A stretch of DNA of 64,000 nucleotides. It comes from Centroscyllium fabricii. Its lineage: Eukaryota. Made by a program: the position numbers and the translations under genes. Below, piece after piece: positions 10,791 through 58,023 of this stretch. A model generated the notes under the pieces. The model did not search any database and had not been told where the DNA came from. It saw only the letters and a program-made list of their open reading frames with translations. Position 1 is the first letter of the stretch. Each line of letters starts with the position of its first letter. The stretch is taken from NCBI GenBank assembly GCA_051313645.2, contig JBNRSN020000021.1, positions 8,804,001-8,868,000 on the forward strand, read 5' to 3'.

Positions 10791-11389
10791 TCAGGGGAGC
10801 CTCCATACACAGGATACAGTGGACAGAATGCACGAGATAACGGCAATAATGAAAACCTGGCACTATTTGTTCGGGGTAATATTCCTCAGTCCTCTTCTCC
10901 CCCCGCAACACCGCATTAAACACAAATGTCATTTCACGGTCACTTAAAAAAAGAAAGAGGAAAAACGCATGAAGAAAAAGCGTTGTAAAATAACAGGTGG
11001 ATCCGGATAAAACACGCAATTAGTTTGCCAAGAAATGTTTTGCTTCGGTGAAGATTATGCTTCAATTAGCTGATTGTCAAATCTGTTGCACCATGGTAGG
11101 GGAACAAATCATTCTTTGAGCGACACAGCATAAATGAAAGGCAAACAACATTGAGAAAGAACTAATACATCAAAGCGATTAAACTTATTAAAACTACAGC
11201 CAATTATCAGCAGGTGAAGAAATGCAACAGGCGGTTATTCTTGTTTCTTTCTCCTCTGTCCGCCCCCCCCAACACCGGCAACTTTAGCCGGGCAAGTTTT
11301 CAGGGCATGGGTAGTCCACTGGGTACTTTACTTAGGTGGCCATTCTTAGGCGAATTCAGAGAGTGACTACTAGCCATTCCTGCTGTGGA

Positions 11390-12048
11390 GCACGCTCCGG
11401 GCCCTGGGGAGTGTTCCACTGCTCGCTACAAACCCCGGGGAGTGTTCTACTGCATGCTCCGGGCCCCGGGGAGTATTCTAATGCATGCTCCGGGCCCCGG
11501 GGAGTGTTCTACTGCACGCTCTGGGCCCCGGGGAGTATTCTACTGCATGCTCCGGGCCCCGGGGAGTGTTCTACTGCATGCTCGGGGCCCTGGGGAGTGT
11601 TCTACTGCATGCTCCAGGCCCTGGGGAGTGTTCTACTGCATGCTCCGGGCCGCGGGGAGTGTTCTACTACATGCTCCGGGCCCCAGGGAGTGTTCTACTG
11701 CATGCTCCGGGCCGCGGGGAGTGTTCTACTGCCCACTCCGGGCCCCGGGGAGTGTTCTACTGCATGCTCCGGGCCCTGGGGAGTGTTCTACTGCCCACTC
11801 CGGGCCCCGGGGAGTGTTCTACTGCATGCTCCGGGCCCTGGGGAGTGTTCTACTGCATGCTCCGGGCCGCGGGGAGTGTTCTACTGCCCGCTCCGGGCCC
11901 CGGGGAGTGTTCTACTGCCAACTCCGGGCCCTGGGGAGTGTTCTACTGCATGCTCCGGGCCCCGGGGGGTGTTCTGCTGCAGCCTCCGGGCCCCGGAGAG
12001 TGTTCTACTGCACGCTGCGGGCCCCGGGGAGTGTTCTACTGCGTACTC
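11390..12048. repeat. 31-bp minisatellite, ~21 units, inside a Tigger-like MITE whose right TIR ends at 12133
   Basis: unit ccggggagtgttctactgcatgctccgggcc; 31-aa periodicity in three frames; followed by ...cggtgctcaacctg-ta. Confidence 0.92.
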
Positions 12049-12135
12049 CCCCCGAACCTTCAGTGGTTCGGAATTTTCAGTAGTCCGGCACCGGCCTGGC
12101 CCCGAGGGTGCCGAATTAACGGTGCTCAACCTGTA

Positions 12136-12645
12136 CTTGCCTTGGAGGCGGTGCAACAAAGGTTCACTAGATTGATCCCTGGGATGAGAGGGCTGTCCTA
12201 GGATGAGAGATTGTGTAGAATGGGCCGATACTCTCTGGAGTTTAGAAGAATGAGAGGTGATCTCATTGAAACATACAAGATTCTGAAGGGATTGACAGGT
12301 TAGATGCTGAGAGGTTGTTACCCCTGGCTGGAGTGTCTAGAACCAGGGGGCACAGTCTCAGGATAAGGGGTCGGCCATTTAAGACTGAGATGAGGAGGAA
12401 TATCTTCACTCAGAGGGTTGTGAATCTTTGGAATTCTCTGCCCCAGAGGGCTGTGGATGCTGAGTCTTTGAGGATATTCAAGGCTGAGATTGATAGGTTT
12501 TTGGACTCTAGGACAATCAAGGGACATGGCGATCGGGCGGGAAAGTGGAGTTGAGGTTGATGATCAGCCATGATCTTATTGAATGGCGGAGCAGGCTCGA
12601 GGGGCCGTGTGGCCGACTCCTGCTCCTAATTCTTATGTTCTTATG
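12136..12645 (+). mobile_element. CR1 family B 3' end
   Basis: ALEAVQQRFTRLIPG..FTQRVVNLWNSLPQRAV..GDRAGKWS plus tail. Confidence 0.9.
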
Positions 12646-19000: not shown

Positions 19001-19520
19001 AGTCTACCTTATTTAAACTTCTGAAAAATTAAATAGAAGCATCAGGGTTATTTGGCCCATCAAAGCTCCTCTCCCAACTTTTCTATCATAACAACCGACT
19101 GCACTTTGAATGAACCCAAATGTTTTTGATTACTTTGTTGCCTGGATGATTAATCCAAATACATCCCACTCTGAGCAAATACGACCACAAATGATATCTG
19201 TTTTCAATTTCCTGCTCATTAATTTGCATCTGCTGGTCCTGTTGCCCAAAGATCAGCCATGATCTCACTGAATGGCGGAGCAGGCTCGAAGGGCCGAATG
19301 GCCTACTCCTGCTCCTATCTTTATGTTTCTATGTTTCGATGTTTTGTCTCCAGGCAACAATCTGAGCTTTATCTCATCAAGTCCATGTACTATTAGCAAC
19401 TGAACAATGGAAACACCCCAACCACAAATGTAAGATGTGGAGGTGCCGGTGTTGGACTGGGGTGGACAAATGCAAGAAGTCACACAACACCAGCTTATAG
19501 TCCAACAGTTTTATTTGAAA

Positions 19521-19557
19521 TCACAAGCTTTCGGAGCGCTGCTCCTTCCTCAGGCGA
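19521..19557 (-). ncRNA. minimal hammerhead ribozyme
   Basis: ucgc-CUGAGGA-a-ggagc(agc)gcucc-GAAA-gc-UU-guga. Confidence 0.75.
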
Positions 19558-20138
19558 AAGAGAAGTTCATCCAAAGACAGCAGATATACAAGGGAGAGAG
19601 AAATCTAATCTCTCCAACATCTCACTTCAGCAGAGAGACAAACAGAGCAGACAAAGGTGTTTTAACATATTTTAACATATTAATCAGGCATCAGTCTGAG
19701 ATCAATGAGGCACAGTCACAAAGGGTCAAATGTTGCAGTCCTGTGTCTGTGTGAAAACACACAGAATGATTTAAAAAAAAGGATTTTCCTCACAAGACAA
19801 AGACGACTCTAGTCTGGATGACTGTACGTCATTGGCTTCATGTCACGCTACATGTGACCCTGCCTGACGTAGAGTCATCCAGACTAGAGTTGTCTTTGTC
19901 TTGTAAGGAAAATCCTTTTTTTTTAATCATTCTGTGTGTTTTTGCACAGACACAGGACTGCAACATTTGACCCTTTGTGACTGTGCCTCATTGATCTCAG
20001 ACTGATGCCTGATTAATATGTTAAAATATGTTAAAACACCTTTGTCTGCTCTGTTTGTCTCTCTGCTGAAGTGAGATGTGGGAGAGATTAGATTTCTCTC
20101 TCCCTTGTATTTGTGCTGTCTTTGAATCAACTTCTCTT

Positions 20139-20175
20139 TCACCTGACGAAGGAGCAGCACTCCGAAAGCTTGTGA
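20139..20175 (+). ncRNA. minimal hammerhead ribozyme
   Basis: ucac-CUGACGA-a-ggag(cagca)cucc-GAAA-gc-UU-guga. Confidence 0.78.
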
Positions 20176-20277
20176 TTTCAAATAAAACTGTCGGACTATA
20201 ACCTGGTGTTGTGTGACTTCTTACAATTGTAAGAAGTCACACAACACCAGCTTGTAGTCCAACAGCTTTATTTGAAA

Positions 20278-20314: not shown

Positions 20315-20470
20315 AAGAGAGATGCATATAAACACAGCATATATAGACGGAGAACAATGTAATCTTTCCAACTGACCTACATCACACCTCAGCAGAGAGA
20401 CATTCATAGCAATCAAAGGTGTGAATGGTGTTTAAACAGATCAGTCAGTCAGGCAGGCACCACCTTAGGA

Positions 20471-21142
20471 AGACACACCCCCATCTTCATCCAAAGGGCT
20501 GAGGTGGAAAGGGTGTCCAGCTTCAAGTTCATCGGGGTCCACATCTCGGAAGATCTCTCCTGGTCACTAAACACCTCCTCTCTGGTTAAAAAGGCCCAAC
20601 AGCGCCTGTACTTCCTAAGGAAGCTGAAGAAAGCCAGGCTGTCATCCGGCATCCTCTCCAACTTCTACAGCTGCACAATAGAAAGCATACTGACAAGCTG
20701 CATCACAGTCTGGTATGGTAATTGCACTATCTCGGACCGGAAAACCCTGCAGCGGGTAGTCAAAACTGCCCAACGAATTACCGGTACACAGCTACCGTCA
20801 ATGGAAAGCATCTACCTCAAACGCTGCTTACGGAGGTCTCTGAACATTATTAAAGACCCCACACACCCCAGCCACAGTCTGTTCACCCCACTGCCCTCCG
20901 GGAGATGCTACAGATCAATTCGCACCCGCACGATTAGATTTCAGAACAGCTTCTTCCCCAGGGCTGTCAGCCTCCTGAACTCTAAAAAGAAACTCCGGTA
21001 CCTGCACACCTGATAATGTACTTTACTGTATGCAATTTGCATGTAATTTATTTGCACTACTCTCGGGAGCGTCGAGTCTTCGTCTCGTTGTATTGTACTA
21101 GTACTCTGCAATGACAATAAAACTTGAATTGAATTGAATTGA
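20471..21142 (+). mobile_element. Rex1/Babar-type LINE 3' part nested in the PLE
   Basis: ERVSSFKFIGVHISEDLSWS..KAQQRLYFLRKL..IESILTSCITVWYG..SFFPRAV; end aatgacaataaa..(ttgaa)n; aggaa on both sides. Confidence 0.9.
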
Positions 21143-21266
21143 GGAAAGGACGTACAACACAGACTACGGTGAGAGACTCTGCCGTCATACCTCTTGCAAA
21201 CTCCTCAACCATCTCGTACACCAGGTCGACAGCAGACGCCGCAACTTCGAAACCAGGATAGAGTCC

Positions 21267-23657
21267 ATGTTCTCAGCCTGTGCTCAGGACACAGCAGACC
21301 AGCTACGAGACACCGCCAAACAGACGAGGCAACTGAACTACACTGCCTACATGCACACCAGGAACAGGAAGCTTGAGAAACTCGGCATCACCACCAGCAG
21401 CAACCAAGCCTCCCCCGGTACCACGGTTGAAACCACAGCGAAGCCCATCGTCAACTTGTCCGACCACACCCTTCAACCAGATGAAATCGAAGTTCTCAGC
21501 CGAAGGCTCAATTTCTGCCCCACCACCAAAATGGACCCCATCGGTCTCACAGCAGACACAGAGGAATTCATCAGGAGAATGAGGCTCCAGGAATTCTTCC
21601 ACAGATCCCAAGATGTCAGCAGCGAAACCAATGAGACAATCAATGATCCTGAACAGCAGACAGAGGGATCCGCAGTGCAGCAACCGAAGAAGAAAGAGTC
21701 AAATTGGACCCCTCCGGAGGGCCGCTGCCCTAAGCTTGACATGTATGCTCAAGCTGTCAGGAGATGCATCAATGCAAGATTCATCAGCTGCACTCACAAG
21801 ACAGTCCAGAATGTCAACCAAGCACAACGCAACATCATCCGCGCTCTCAAGACCAACCGCAACATCGTCATCAAACCGGCAGACAAAGGAGGAGCCATCG
21901 TCATACAGAACAGAATGGACTATTGCAAAGAAGCATACCAACAACTGGACAACCAGGAATACTACAGACAGTTACCTGTAGATCTAACCAAGGAACACAC
22001 CCGCCAACTCAACAGACTGATCAAGACCTTCGCTCCAGACTTTCAGAGCATCCTACGCGCCCTCATCCCACGTAATCCCCACGTGGGAGATTTCAACTGC
22101 CTCCCAAAGATACACAAAGCCAACACACCCAGATGCCCTATCGTATCAGGCAACGGAACCCTGTGTGAGAACCTCTCTGGATACATCGAGGGCATCCTGA
22201 AACCCATCGTATCGGGAACCCCCAGCTTTTGTCGCTACACTACAGACTTCTTACAGAAACTCAGCACCCACGGACCAGTCGAACCAGGAACACTCCTCGC
22301 CACGATGGACGTCTCAGCACTCTACACCAGTATCCCCCACGATGACAGCATCACTGCGACAGCCTCAGTACTCAACACCAACAACAGCCAATCTCCAGAC
22401 GCCATCCTACAACTCATCCACTTCATCCTTGACCACAATGTCTTCACCTTCGACAACCATTTTTTTACACAAACACACGGAACAGCCACGGGGACCAAAT
22501 TCGCACCCCAATACGCCAGCATCTTCATGCACAAGTTCGAGCAAAACTTCTTCACTGCACAGGACCTCCAACCAATGCTATACACCAGACACATCAATGA
22601 TATTTTCCTCCTGTGGACCCACGGCGAAGAATCACTGAAAAGACTACACGATAACATAAACAAGTTCCAGCCCACCATGAAATTCACCATGGACTACTCC
22701 TCAGAATCGGTTTCATTCTTGGACACACGAATCTCCATCAAAGACAGCTACCGTAAGCCCACGGACAACCTCACGATGCTCCACTACTCCAGCTTCCACC
22801 CTAACCACATTAAAGAAGCCATCCCCAATGGACAAGCCCTGCAAATACACAGGATCTGCTCAGATGAGGAGGAACGCGATGGACACTTACAGACACTGAA
22901 AGATGCCCTTGTAAGAACGGAACATGACACTCAACTCATCGATCGACAGTTCCGACGGGCCACAGTGAAAAATCGCATAGACCACCTCAGAAGACAAACA
23001 CGGGACACAACCAACAGAGTACCCTTTGTGGTCCAGTACTTCCCCGGAGCGGAGAAACTGTGCCATGTTCTTCGCAGCTTTCAACATGTCATCGATGATG
23101 ATGAACCCCTCGCTAAGGCCATCCCCACGCCTCCACTACTCGCCTTCAAACAGCCGCCTAACCTCAAACAGACCATCGTTCACAGCAAATTACCCAGCTT
23201 TCACGAGAATAGCGACCATGACACCACACAACCCTGCCACGGCAACCTCTGCAAGACGTGCCAGATCATCAGCACAGATACCATCATCACACGTGAGGAC
23301 ACCACACACCGGGTACATGGTGGTATGTACTCATGTGACTCGGCCAACGTTGTCTACCTCATTCGTTGTAGGAAAGGATGCCCCGGAGCATGGTGCATCG
23401 GCAAGACCATGCAGACAATATGATAACGGATGAATGGACACCGCACAACAATCGCCAGGCAGGGGTGTTCCCTTCTAGTCGGGGAACACTTCAGCAGTCA
23501 AGGACATTCAGCCTCCGATCTTCGGGTAAGCATTCTCCAAGGTGGCCTTCGAGACACAGGACAATGCAAAATTGTCGAGCAGAAACTGATAGCCAAGTTC
23601 CGCACTCATGAGCACGGCCTCAACCGTGATATTGGCTTCATGTCACGCTACATGTAA
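21267..23657 (+). pseudogene. PLE reverse transcriptase - GIY-YIG endonuclease, inactivated
   Basis: IKPADKGG, LPKIHK, MDVSALYTSIPH, GTKFAP, RHIND (degenerate RYIDD), CHGNLCKTC linker, VVYLIRC..CIGKT; in-frame TGA TAA at 23421-23426, then the same frame continues to GLNRD.. Confidence 0.92.
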
Positions 23658-24129
23658 CCCCATCTGACATAGAGTCATCCAGACTCGAGTCGTCTTTGGC
23701 TTGTCCTCACTACACAGATGCGGCTGTACCGACTGCGATTTCCAGCAAGAAAAATCTTTTTTTTTTAATTGTTCTGTGTGGGTTTTCACACAGACCCCAG
23801 ACTGTGCAATATTTGTCCTTTGTGACTCCACTTCATTGTTCCTAGGGTGGTGCCTGCCTGACTGACTAATCTGTTTTAACACCATTCACACCTTTGATTG
23901 CTATGAATGTCTCTCTGCCGAGGTGTGATGAAGGGCAGTTGGAAAGATTACATTGTTCTCCGTCTATATATGCTGTGTCTTTATGCATCTCTCTTACACC
24001 TAATGAAGGAGCAACGCTCCGAAAGCTTGTGATTTCAAATAAAACTGTTGGACTATAACCTGGTCTTGTGTGACTTCTTACATTTGTCCACCCCAGTCCA
24101 ACACAGGCACCTCCACATCACCCCAACTA

Positions 24130-25924: not shown

Positions 25925-26675
25925 TCAGCCATGGCTGAGTGGGTAGCACTCTCGCCTCTTCTGAGCCAGAAGGCCGTGGGTTTCAAGAGCCCACTGCAGT
26001 AGCCTGAGCACAAAAGCTCAGCTGACTCTACCAGTGCGGTGCTGAGGGAGTGCTGCACTGTCGGAGGTGGCGCCTTTCGGATGTGACGGCAAACCGAAGC
26101 CCCGCCCGGTCTGCCCCTCCCAGGTGGACGTAAAAGGTCCCACGGCAGGGGAGCTCTCCCCAGTGTCCTGGCCAATATTTATCCCTCAACCAACAGCACT
26201 AAAAATAAATTATCTGGTCATTATCTCACTGCTGTTTGTGGGAGCTTGCTGTGCACTAATTGGTGGCCGCGTTTTCTACATTACAACAGTGACTACACTT
26301 CGAAAAGTGCTTAAATTGGCTGTGAAGCTCTCTGGCTCTGCTTAGCTTCCAAGCCTTGCCAGTGACCCTGTTCCTGGGACTGGGGACAGGGTCACTGGTC
26401 AAGGCTTGGAAGCTAAGCAAGAGCCAGGCCTGGTTGGTACTTGGATAGGTGACTACCAGGTGCAGAAGGTCACAAAAGGAGCCCCAGGGACGGGTGGTTG
26501 GCTGAAGATTGTCGGAATGATGGAAAGATGGAATGGCGGCGCGCACAGACGCAGCGGCTTTGCTGGACTCTTGGGAGCTTGCAAGATCACATTTCATTGT
26601 TTATGTATAATGACAATAAAGTTGAATTATTATTATTAATTATGGGATGTCCCGAGGTTGTGAAAGGCACTATAT
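25925..26675 (+). mobile_element. DeuSINE interrupted by a 5S-derived SINE
   Basis: head gggtagcactctcgcct, Deu core; tail resumes at 26641. Confidence 0.82.
26332..26638 (+). mobile_element. 5S-rRNA-derived SINE with Rex1-type tail and 5' fold-back
   Basis: ggaagctaagcaagagccaggcctggttggtacttggat matches the 5S internal control region; tail aatgacaataaagttgaa(tta)n. Confidence 0.82.
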
Positions 26676-30759: not shown

Positions 30760-31185
30760 TCACACACATGCTCATGGGCAATTTTTATTATCTCCAATTT
30801 ACCTAACCTGCATGTCTTTGGGAGGAAACCGGAGTAAACCCACACGAACACGGGGAGAACATGCAAACTCCACACAGAGGTCCCGGGCCAAGCAGGGTTC
30901 GAACCCAGGAGCTCCTATATTGCAAGGCAGCAGTGCTAACCACTGCGCCACCGTGTTGTCCTGGACCAACAGAGCAGGCTGAGACAATTCAATCAACAGG
31001 GCCACTTTGGACAATAATGTTCAGGGTTACAATTCAATGAAATGCAACTTTGTCATTGTACAGTACACAAGTACAGTACAACGAAATGTGAGCTTTCAAG
31101 CTCCCAAGATACGGTGCAAATAGTCATTAAGTGTGACATTGAAATGTAACAATGGTGCGAGTAGTCATAGTGTAAACAATGTAAG
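30760..31185 (-). mobile_element. Rex1 3' UTR + spacer + V-SINE composite, copy 1
   Basis: near-identical to 31525-31887. Confidence 0.8.
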
Positions 31186-31441
31186 CGGCGGAATGGATTT
31201 GTATGATAGGATGGAATGATCACGATGTTCTAAATGTTTTTAATGTTCAATAAATATATATTTTTTTTTAATGGGTAGCACACTCGCCTCTGAGTCAGAA
31301 GTTGCTGGGTTCCAGTCCCACTCCAGGGTTTAGAACACAAAAATCTAGGCTGGCACTCCAGTGCAGTGCTGAGGAAGTGCTGCACTGTCGCAGGTGCTAT
31401 CATTTGGATGAGATGTTAAACCAAGGCCCTGTCTGCCCTCT

Positions 31442-31722
31442 TCAATTAAACTTTATTGTCATTGTACAGTGCTTAGGTACAGTACAACGAAAAGTGAGCT
31501 TGCACGCTCCCAAGATACGGCGCACACACATACTCATGGGCAATTTTTAGTATCTCCAATTCACCTAACCTGCATGTCTTTGGGAGGAAACCGGAGTAAA
31601 CCCACACGAACACGGGGAGAACATGCAAACTCCACACAGAGGTCCCGGGCCAAGCAGGATTCGAACCCAGGAGCTCCTATAGTGCAAGGCAGCAGTGCTA
31701 ACCACTGCGCCACCGTGTTGTC
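31442..31722 (-). mobile_element. V-SINE variant with Rex1-type tail
   Basis: tRNA head and V-domain; 3' end ...cgttgtactgtac..aatgacaataaagtttaattgaa on the minus strand. Confidence 0.82.
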
Positions 31723-31792
31723 CTGGACCAACAGAGCAGGCTGAGACAATTCAATCAACAGGGCCACTTTGGACAATAATGGTCAGGGTTAC

Positions 31793-32860
31793 AATTCAAT
31801 TCAATGCAACTTTGTCATTGTATAGTCATTAAGCGTGACAATGTAATGTGACAATTGTGCGAGTAGTCATAGTGTAAACAATGTAAGTGTAAACAGTGGA
31901 GGTACATGTACACAGTATATATATTGCACAGTTCCCGTAGGTTAAGGTGACTGTAGTTGAGGTAGCATGGGGTACTGATCGAGGTAAGTAAGTATTCAGA
32001 ATTATAAAGTGCAAAGTGCAAATGGCAGTGCAAAGTGTAGATGAGCAAGGGCTGGGGAGCAAATGGGCGGATAGTGCATTGTGTGGGGGGCAGGGGGGCC
32101 GATGGTAGGCAGAGTTAGTGGTGAGTGACAGAGTTCAGCTGGGTAACAGCCGTGGGGAAGAAGCTGTTCCTGAGCCTGGTCGTTCAAACTCGAATGCATC
32201 TGTAGCGCCTCCCAGATGGTAGGGGGGCAAAACAGTCTATAGCTGGGATGGGTGGGGTCCCTGGTAATGCTGAGTGATCCCCATAGGCAACGTTTCTGGT
32301 AAATGTCCTGAATGGCAGGTAGCTGGGTGCCGGTGATGTACTGGGCAGTTTTGACTACCAGCTGCAGGGCTTTCTGGTCAGAGGTGGAGCAGCAGCCATA
32401 CCACACCGTGATGCAGTTGGTCAGGTTGCTCTCTATTGTGCACCGGTAGCAGTTGGAGAGAAGCTGGGAGGACAGGTTGACTCTCTTCAGCCTCCGCAGG
32501 AGGTATAGGCGCTGCTGAGCTTTCTTCACCAGAGAGGAGGAGTTGAGCGACCATGAGAGGTCCTCTGTGATGTGGACGCCCAGGAACTTGAAGCTGCAGA
32601 CCCTTTCCACCTCAGCCCCATTGATGTAGATGGGGGGGGGGGGGTGTCTGCTGCCTCTGGACTTCCTGAAGTCCACAATGTGCTCCTTGGTCTTCTTGGT
32701 GTTGAGGGCCAGGCTGTTGTCAGCGCTCCACGTCACAAGTTATTGGACCTCTTCCCTGTAGGCTGACTCATCATTGTTGGTGATCAGGTCTACCACCGTG
32801 GTGTCGTTCGCAAACTTGATGATGGTGTTGGAGTCGTGGACAGGCACACAATCATGGGTG
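31793..32860 (-). mobile_element. Rex1/Babar-type LINE, 5'-truncated and disrupted
   Basis: IIKFANDTTVV (FADD motif), LALNTKKTKEHIVDFRK, KAQQRLYLLRRL; (ttgaa)n end. Confidence 0.9.
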
Positions 32861-33389
32861 GCTGTGCAACAGTATTGATCAATTGAAAACAAAAAATTTA
32901 AATGTTTTTTATTGGAGTCAATGCATTTATGAACGTCATTCAGAGACAAAGTGGCCAAAATACTGGTTCCTTTTCCACACTTGGCTTTCTTTAAAAATCA
33001 GAATCATATATAGGCACCAGCATAACCGCCCAAGAGTTACTGCATGAAATCTCAAAAGGTAACAATGTCTTATTTCCGCTCCCCCAAAATATCAATCCAG
33101 TTTACCCCCCGCCCCCAATTTGCTTCTGAGTCCTATAACGCAGAGGTTAGTTAAGATTAACCGTGAATTTACAAAGTTACAGTGCAAATATCGCATCTCA
33201 AGCTCTGATGCGACCCCCATAGCCTGTCCCATTCACACCCGCTGTCTAGATTTTGGACTGGAGGAGGTGGGGGGTGGGAGGCATAACGGGCAGACCAAAT
33301 AGACGGGAAAACATTGAGCATTAAGGCGAGGTTATAGTGACTAACTTGGAAATGCCACGGAACAACCCTTGATCTCTCTACTGCCACAT

Positions 33390-52727: not shown

Positions 52728-53506
52728 AAATTAAAACACTTTTTCCACAGGTTTATTATTTTTAAATACTGTAATGAAAGGTAAGTTTACTTTTAGCCCC
52801 GTTAGAAAATATAATTCACTTTTCAAAAATTTAAATTGTTTAAAATAGTTATTTCATGTCATTTATAGTTATTTTTAAAATGCGATGTTTTTGAAAAATG
52901 TATTTGAAGTTTCAGTGATGTTTTGGGGCTTGTAGTTTTCATAGTTTTGACAGCATTTCCTGTCAAACTTTATGAATGGAGCATTCTCTGCTCCGATTGG
53001 CTCTCCATGGCCCACGTGATCCCACGCGATCCATCGCACTACCTGCGCCGCTGGGATACGCAAGCACTGCGCGCCGGCAGTTGGAGGAGGCCCAGGACCC
53101 TGTTCCTGGGACTCGGGACAGGGCCACTGGCAAGGCTTGGAAGCTAAGCAGAGCCAGGCCTGGTTAGTACTTGGATGGGTAACCACCAGACAATACCAGG
53201 TGCAGAAAGTCCCGAAAGGAGCCCCGGGGAGGGGCGGTTGGCTGAAGATTGTCGGAATGATGGGAAGATGGAATGGCGGCGCGCACAGACGCAGCGGCTT
53301 TGCTGGACTCTTCGGAGCTTGCAAGATCACATTTCGTTGTTCATGTACTTGTACATTGTATAATGACAATAAAGTTGAATTATTATTATTATTATTATTA
53401 AGGAATGGAATTCCAAGCGGGCCCACCGCTCAACGGCCGGCGCGCAAGTTAAGTGCAGGTTGGAGGCTTGAACCCACGGGAAGCCTCCGACCCGAATTTC
53501 TGGACC
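52456..53506. mobile_element. Harbinger-type MITE (ggcccagaaatt family) containing a 5S SINE
   Basis: ggcccagaaatt / aatttctggacc, TSD att. Confidence 0.8.
53096..53400 (+). mobile_element. 5S-rRNA-derived SINE with Rex1-type tail
   Basis: ggaagctaagcagagccaggcctggttagtacttggatggg..aataccaggtgc resembles 5S nt ~46-110; (tta)n end. Confidence 0.85.
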
Positions 53507-57321: not shown

Positions 57322-58023
57322 CAGGTTGAACTTCGTTGATCCGGCATGGCAACTTCGAACGTCCGGCAATAATTTCCCCGACTGCCCTGTGCATGCGCAA
57401 AATGGCCACCGCGATCGATGCTTCGCCGAATGATCTGCGCATGCGCTGCCGAACGGCGAGCGCATGCGCAGATCATTCACAATGGCCGAGCCGATCCCGA
57501 GCCAAGCCTGGCTGCTGCAAACCTCCGTAAGCCTGGCCACTGCGAGCCTCCGTGAGCCTGGCCGCTGCGAGCCTCCCTGAGCCTGGCCGCTGCGAGCCTC
57601 CGTGAGCCTGGCCGCTGCGAGCCTCCCTGAGCCTGGCCGCTGCGAGCCTCCCTGAGCCTGGCCGCTGCGAGCCTCCGTGAGCCTGGCCGCTGCGAGCCTC
57701 CCTGAGCCTGGCCGCTGTGAGCCTCCGTGAGCCTGGCCGCTGCGAGCCTCCGTGAGCCTGGCCGCTGCGAGCCTCCCTGAGCCTGGCCGCTGCGAGCCTC
57801 CGTGAGCCTGGCCGCTGCGAGCCTCCGTGAGCCTGGCCGCTGCGGGTCTCCCTGAGCCTGGCCGCTGCGGGTCTCCCCGAACGATCAGCGCATACGCAGA
57901 CCAGGCCAGCGGCCATTTTGAATGGTCTGCGCATGCGCGCGACAAAACTTCAATCATTCGTGATTTTCACTTGTCCGGTACGGGCCTGGTCCCGCCTGTG
58001 CTGGATTAACAAACTTCAACCTG
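57322..58023. mobile_element. Tigger-like MITE with an internal minisatellite
   Basis: ta-caggttgaa / ttcaacctg-ta. Confidence 0.85.
57504..57878. repeat. 25-bp minisatellite, ~15 units
   Basis: unit gagcctggccgctgcgagcctcc(g/c)t. Confidence 0.92.

Follow-up and report, generated by a model that had tools for sequence, protein, structure and literature searches.

The 64-kb window (the whole stretch of DNA analysed here) is repeat-rich vertebrate DNA, its repeats apparently resembling those of cartilaginous fish, and contains two copies of a genuine SINE3-type retroposon. The element works in the manner of the known 5S-headed bipartite SINEs but is built on a LINE of the Rex1 clade; it has an unusual hairpin head and probably includes one snapback insertion. 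The copies are dispersed and independent insertions of about 300 nt each, 27 kb apart in unrelated flanks, and LINEs of the Rex1 clade lie near them. Both have the same order of modules: a terminal hairpin, a segment matching 5S rRNA positions 50-109, a linker of about 70 nt, 28-36 nt of a likely Rex1 5' terminus, a Rex1 3' tail and an (ATT)n end. An earlier note on this DNA had rightly listed the 5S head and the Rex1 tail, but it overlooked the Rex1 5' terminus and the 27-nt inverted extension of copy 2. The features of the element are as follows.

53092-53399 (+): copy 1, probably complete, running from the predicted Pol III start as far as the terminal (ATT)n
26332-26641 (+): copy 2, with a 10-nt deletion in the 5S part and a 13-nt deletion in the tail loop
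53092-53130 (+): 5' terminal hairpin replacing the first part of 5S; fold of -20.0 kcal/mol from 53094
26359-26398 (+): terminal hairpin of copy 2, with a 16-bp stem and an 8-nt loop
26332-26358 (+): 27-nt inverted extension, candidate snapback product; reverse complement of the stretch that immediately follows the hairpin
53141-53201 (+): segment derived from 5S rRNA (Rfam model positions 50-109) that includes the internal control region
53202-53272 (+): purine-rich linker, with no run of four T
53273-53308 (+): likely Rex1-clade LINE 5' terminus, with the ATG at which the long ORF of fish Rex1 starts; 36/36 between copies
53309-53381 (+): Rex1-type 3' tail, stem 53334-53342 / 53358-53366
53379-53399 (+): (ATT)n terminal microsatellite
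26533-26628 (+): likely Rex1 5' terminus and 3' tail of copy 2

Alignment of copy 1 (53092-53381) with copy 2 (26359-26628) gave 252 matches, 15 substitutions and gaps of 1, 1, 1, 10 and 13 nt, an identity of 94.4% without gaps (blastn E 8e-103). This bears out the earlier observation that the element occurs twice, while the start given for copy 1, 53096, has to be moved, homology in fact beginning at 53092. A third copy of the head, linker or body was not found elsewhere in the 64-kb window, and the linker had no match in the window outside the element or in the best 80 of 426 Rex1 loci. Copy 2 is a clean insertion at the 3' end of an abundant repeat, its left flank having 12 other matches, and both of its boundaries were set by eye from an empty-site comparison with seven uninterrupted copies of the host repeat. 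The flanks of copy 1 had no match elsewhere in the window. No target-site duplication longer than 4 nt was seen at either copy. In size, interspersion and non-tandem layout the copies agree with the SINEBase definition of a SINE (<1 kb), as given in the accessible part of PMC3531059. ARAGORN reported no tRNA gene. As side observations, a 16-nt inverted match (15/16, E 0.88, chance level) at 53068-53083 and 53431-53446 flanks copy 1, whose host may be a palindromic element, and tandem arrays with periods of 31 nt and 25 nt are found at 11266-12154 and 57430-57951.

At positions 53100-53201 the Rfam 5S model scored 25.7 bits, short of its gathering score of 38, with an E value of 0.52 when the whole window was scanned and of 0.0028 in a scan of 351 nt. 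Model positions 50-109 aligned to 53141-53201, unbroken in copy 1, and a count by eye gave about 40 identical columns out of 61; positions 1-13 were unmatched, 14-28 weak and 29-49 skipped, and the hairpin occupies that place. Homology to 5S up to the 5' end of the element, which is typical of SINE3 and not a stated requirement, was thus not found. The control region of 5S comprises box A (+50-64), the intermediate element (+67-72) and box C (+80-97), all of which, on this numbering, are presumably covered by the segment. The 10-nt deletion in copy 2 lies towards the 3' side of this region. The head reaches the at least 60% identity to tRNA, 5S or 7SL RNA over at least 60 nt that SINEBase asks for, its length being borderline (accessible part of PMC3531059).

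In the Rfam alignment position 1 of 5S maps to 53092, which is the 5' boundary of copy 1, and the nearest purines are A 53094 in copy 1 and A 26361 in copy 2. We consider it fairly probable from this alignment that Pol III starts at the hairpin, at these two residues, and the predicted start is in line with the start near 53093 that had been proposed earlier. A run of four T does not occur within either copy; the first one downstream is at 877 nt for copy 1 and at 227 nt for copy 2.

The hairpin that the earlier note had described in place of the start of 5S is present, but longer than stated there (16-bp stem, 26359-26398). From the predicted start, the RNA of copy 2 folds into a flush 15-bp hairpin of -27.3 kcal/mol, and its cDNA has a flush hairpin at the 3' end (-14.0 kcal/mol with DNA parameters); the extended fold of copy 2 has a z score of -9.05. 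The empty-site comparison with the seven host copies shows that the 27-nt extension falls inside the insertion. This extension matches the sequence of copy 1 at 27/27 positions and the own arm of copy 2 with 27 matches and two 1-nt gaps; the 3' arm of copy 2 carries two 1-nt insertions that are absent from the extension and that must be later changes or assembly errors. All three of the 1-nt indels between the copies sit in the hairpin or the mirrored arm (53092-53160 / 26359-26427), and they could come from cruciform-linked mutation or from assembly error in an inverted repeat.

Snapback synthesis on cDNA has been reported for R2 proteins, with junctions mostly templated by the cDNA itself and often formed after full-length synthesis (PMC11371274, PMC11204384). 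The extension is what self-priming of a finished cDNA would write, and we therefore lean towards a snapback origin; such self-priming is probably the best explanation for it, the single copy not being decisive. As in the R2 junctions, the 3' end of the cDNA would prime antisense synthesis on itself before joining the target. However, the R2 cases were seen in engineered insertions in cultured cells (PMC11371274, PMC11204384), whereas the present one would come from a single natural SINE copy, and the terminal hairpin of copy 2 is a ready-made primer, unlike in those cases. Copy 1 has two C residues ahead of its predicted start, which could stem from a snapback of 2 nt, from transcription beginning 2 nt earlier, or from chance. 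Perhaps the hairpin itself arose by an earlier snapback, as we infer.

Alternatively, the master element might have had a long arm of about 40 bp and been transcribed from further upstream, by a flanking promoter or by read-through, in which case copy 2 would be full-length and copy 1 truncated at its 5' end. The extension is identical to copy 1 and two indels away from the arm of copy 2, as such a master would predict, and 5' truncation is common in LINE-driven insertions. However, the truncation of copy 1 must then have landed by chance no more than 2 nt from 5S position 1. Moreover, a type-1 Pol III transcript cannot include sequence 27 nt upstream of its start, so that the retained control region would be idle. 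We regard a long-armed master as improbable and retain snapback as the preferred origin of the extension.

Other folds and likenesses of the element did not hold. A mir-4650 identity for copy 2 (33.5 bits against a cut-off of 80.7) merely reflects the long hairpin, and the head resembles 18 nt of another repeat in the window no more than expected by chance (E 0.88). The small hairpins that had been noted in the body have stems of 3 and 5 bp, and they are unsupported because each loses a pair in copy 2 (2/3 and 4/5). The 3' half of the two copies folded no better than shuffles (z -0.74 and -0.43).

The 3' terminal motif of the tail occurs at four other ends in the window, and the LINEs to which the tail is related are the following.

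20440-21140 (+): LINE-A, a 5'-truncated Rex1-clade element
31030-31200 (-): end of the LINE-B 3' UTR, which matches the tail best; a local duplicate of the RT element's end (element at 31795-32880)
31795-32880 (-): LINE-B, a 5'-truncated Rex1-clade element with the end of the RT and the PF09004 region, lacking most of the tail

The end of LINE-B (31041-31109, minus strand) is most similar to the tail, with 60 matches and 9 substitutions (87%), followed by a tRNA-headed SINE (31444-31515, minus strand; 83%) and by the end of LINE-A (21061-21130; 53 matches, 15 substitutions and 5 gaps, 78%). The score of the latter was reached by 0 of 2000 shuffles, and the likeness to the LINE end at 21065-21140 that had been pointed out earlier is real, but LINE-B is closer. 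Compared with the RT element, the LINE-B end is 92% identical in the 3' UTR and 98.7% in the flank. Both ORFs in the window, those of LINE-A and LINE-B, contain PF09004. From 2367 candidates 1026 homologues were obtained, the best 120 listed being mostly fish RT proteins with PF09004. The peptide of the Rex1 forward primer was present at at least 6/7 residues in 116 of 145 proteins, and in 76 of these 116 its spacing to the reverse-primer motif was 573 or 576 nt; the Rex1 amplicon has been published as 573-575 bp (PMC3728117). By eye, REX-11_DR of the RTclass1 set (from the accessible part of the PMC3708506 supplement) is very close to homologue P0052 and to the LINE-B ORF. LINE-A and LINE-B accordingly belong to the Rex1 clade by primer-motif spacing and this comparison by eye, rather than by a tree. 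Matching of the Rex1 primers at the nucleotide level was uninformative (12-18/21 and 12-16/24, controls alike) and was replaced by the peptide level. A search for Rex1 protein in viral contigs confirmed nothing.

Across seven tails, 95.2% of 63 cells are paired in the 9-bp stem ahead of the terminal motif, against 14-68% in slid controls, the stem having been drawn from the same sequences. There were no double-sided changes and no excess over column shuffles, and the stem is therefore compatible with a recognition stem-loop without being proof of one. The alignment to 5S positions 50-109 and the tail match together support the earlier reading of a 5S-derived SINE with a Rex1-clade tail, and on these sequence grounds the element is very likely a SINE3 with a Rex1 tail.

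Several neighbouring repeats were observed besides. The tRNA-headed SINE (31440-31722, minus strand) and a second, partial copy of it (about 30760-30960, minus strand) have the same Rex1-type tail and lack the Rex1 5' piece; this SINE, whose body we take to be V-domain-like, is possibly a second family using the same LINE. A local duplication (30760-31200 / 31560-31891, minus strand) includes the LINE-B 3' end, its flank and the tRNA SINE, one copy being without most of the LINE tail. LINE-A (20440-21140) appears to be inserted into an RT-like element with a 761-codon ORF (21138-23423, plus strand), which we assume to resemble a Penelope-type element and which has long inverted repeats nearby (19466-20230 and 23839-24087).

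Directly before the tail, positions 53273-53299 read in one frame as MAARTDAAA, and homologue P0106 carries MAARLDAAA 126 residues ahead of its endonuclease motif. For comparison we used the best 80 of 426 confirmed loci, fetched with an alignment of 15 proteins and coming from other organisms. In two of these loci the 5' piece of the SINE was matched on the coding strand, at 26/28 nt in L035:1554-1581 (E 3e-6) and at 23/28 nt in L027:38-65, the distances to the endonuclease ORF match downstream being 273 and 327 nt. The next best site for the 28-nt match was 20/28 among these best 80 of the 426 loci and 18/28 in the window. The remaining 12 of 14 loci with upstream sequence scored 12-17/28, and several start with a shorter ATGGC-type motif, which suggests that the piece belongs to one Rex1 subgroup. 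When all 639 tiles of 100 nt from the window were compared with the 14 LINE upstream regions, the top four matches came from two SINE tiles (E 7e-8 and 3e-5), the next best having an E value of 4e-4. P0106 and P0122 are near-identical and share just 2 residues upstream of the motif, and this difference in upstream sequence suggests that the motif marks the LINE 5' terminus. In a second search the motif was present at at least 7/9 residues in 22 of 45 proteins, a figure that is not a prevalence because the query began with the motif; it stood at residue 1 in 13 and was complete (9/9) in P0183. Seven diverse Rex1-like LINEs (L001, L015, L021, L023, L032, L034 and L065) were also seen to have an ATGG(C/T)-type motif, presumably a YY1-like site, about 200-450 nt before the endonuclease match, and L011:4595-4621 (minus strand) matches the Rex1 5' motif at 20/28 nt, shortly before an RT fragment of a different type.

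The tail begins within 8 nt of the 5' match. A LINE 5' piece followed on the same strand by a 3' end of the same clade is the arrangement called bipartite in the accessible part of PMC5786205, the 5' piece being identified here through loci outside the host; the donor is a LINE of the Rex1 clade rather than RTE or Vingi. The 5' match is short and comes from non-shark loci, and the window offers no full-length LINE joining such a 5' end to LINE-A or LINE-B, both of which are 5'-truncated. Still, the evidence from these comparisons strongly suggests a bipartite Rex1 body.

Because the head and linker lie directly upstream of the ATG-bearing LINE piece, the SINE might instead descend by deletion from an autonomous Rex1 LINE with a 5S-derived Pol III head of its own, the linker being the 5' leader of that LINE. 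However, head and linker were present in none of the best 80 of the 426 loci, which are from other organisms, and an ORF of 3 kb would hold many T4 terminators (4.8 per kb in the window). We consider such a LINE an unlikely source.

The distribution of the element bears on whether it is a family at all. Part of it was present in 20 of the 22 sequencing runs listed (10 studies, covering organisms A-F and fish gut metagenomes). At least half of the 29 sampled words were found in 9 run rows from 3 studies, the best holder of which may be the source sample, and the 11 of 20 holder runs with under half of the words were excluded as evidence. These values are word shares and not copy numbers, and they suggest that the element is present in more than one organism. 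Searching metagenome contigs with the exact 29-nt body pattern gave no matches. This absence, and the presence of only two copies in the 64-kb window, would suit a low-copy chimera in which a 5S fragment and a Rex1 remnant were joined by template switching and which does not propagate itself. However, the same modular structure at two independent insertion sites within 64 kb, as well as the 9 run rows from 3 studies, speak against a chimera of this kind, which we find very improbable. That the piece at 53273-53308 is no Rex1 5' end is hardly credible, since the match, although just 28 nt in length when several LINE 5' ends share a short ATGGC core, reaches well past this core at 26/28, has no other site better than 20/28 in the best 80 of 426 loci or 18/28 in the window, and directly abuts a tail of the same LINE clade.

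Taking these results together, we favour a non-autonomous SINE3-type retroposon in which an internally deleted Rex1 LINE supplies both body and tail, and regard this origin as rather likely. A Rex1 element would have been reduced to about its first 36 nt and its last 75 nt, and what was left would have acquired a 5S-derived head, probably by a template switch. The 5S internal control region would then direct Pol III to a start some 50 nt ahead of box A, so that the RNA would open with the hairpin's first base (A 53094 / 26361) and read through the T4-free body. Rex1 protein would bind the 3' stem-loop and insert the RNA by target-primed reverse transcription. At the 5' end of the RNA the cDNA would finish in a flush hairpin able to prime itself, and in copy 2 a further 27 nt would have been copied before joining to the target. 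Lying upstream of the start site, this extension would not be inherited.

A bolder reading, which we offer as a speculation that may well be wrong, is that this is the first SINE on a bipartite Rex1 remnant whose head is both made and renewed by snapback. A 5'-truncated 5S-derived copy would fold back and so add an inverted arm ahead of its promoter. Inside this arm, about 50 nt from box A, Pol III would start and thereby fix the flush hairpin as the 5' end. The hairpin would prime snapback at later insertions, and Pol III would trim the extension off again. If this were true, a 5S SINE that had been truncated could regain a functional head by using its own sequence.

Among the LINEs that share tails with known SINEs, RSg-1 presumably belongs to the Rex1 clade or is Rex1-like; a clade placement of it was not found in the literature searched. 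In the accessible parts of Ohshima 2013 (PMC3747384, Table 1) and PMC5135761, OS-SINE1 of salmonids likewise has a 5S head and a LINE-shared tail, that of RSg-1, but it is a DeuSINE; Ped-1 has a BovB tail (PMC3747384). A 5S head with a tail other than CR1/L2, which had been put forward as possibly new, is thus preceded by OS-SINE1 and Ped-1, while the Rex1-clade tail itself stands. A Rex1 tail on a tRNA head is given, in the same part of PMC3747384, for SINE2-5_NV (with Rex1-24_NV). Between the 5S part and the tail the present element has about 107 nt, 36 of them the LINE 5' end. The vertebrate Deu domain measures 330 bp in the accessible part of PMC4824008, and for this reason a full Deu domain cannot fit here, although the linker could hold a fragment of one. 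SINE3-1 and AmnSINE1, of zebrafish and amniotes, likewise have a 5S internal promoter and a LINE-type tail; unlike the present element, they have a Deu body with a CR1-4_DR tail and no Rex1 parts, as described in the accessible part of PMC3747384. The SINEs of cartilaginous fish, namely HE1 and SacSINE1 of sharks and the CmiSINEs of elephant shark, also share their tails with LINEs but are all tRNA-headed, with HER1, CR1-like or L2 tails (accessible parts of PMC3747384 and PMC5499810); the term Rex is absent from that part of PMC5499810.

The closest relatives in organisation are CoeSINE5, Ped-1, HaSE3 and SINE-1_Pmo, in which, according to the accessible part of Kojima 2018 (PMC5786205), a 5S head is likewise followed by a LINE 5' piece and a 3' end of the same clade. 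Their bodies are from RTE, whereas the LINE parts here are from Rex1; the piece here also represents the very 5' end of the LINE and contains the start codon of the ORF, and a hairpin replaces the first part of 5S. The same part of PMC5786205 gives RTE and Vingi alone as sources of LINE 5' parts in SINE bodies, and RTE, Ingi, Vingi and R2 alone as sources of bipartite derivatives without an ORF; in its supplement the terms Rex1, SINE3 and shark have 0 occurrences. The element is not described in the accessible parts of PMC7245038, PMC6274825, PMC10946416, PMC5499810, PMC4824008, PMC3531059, PMC5135761 and PMC3708506. A search of titles and abstracts found no bipartite Rex1 SINE or shark SINE3; subscription literature lies largely outside this search, and a database entry is possible.

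In the literature searched, so far as its accessible parts extend, a 5S head on a bipartite LINE body is known just for RTE and Vingi, and the Rex1 case would be new there. It would add Rex1 to the few LINE clades whose 5' end forms a SINE body, and would be a direct case for SINE bodies coming from internally deleted LINEs. The 36-nt 5' piece is unchanged though the copies differ by 5.6% overall, and while it is too short to show selection, it raises the question of whether the Rex1 protein recognises both ends of its own RNA. Finally, the element may be a natural record of cDNA snapback, which in the literature searched is otherwise known from engineered R2 insertions.
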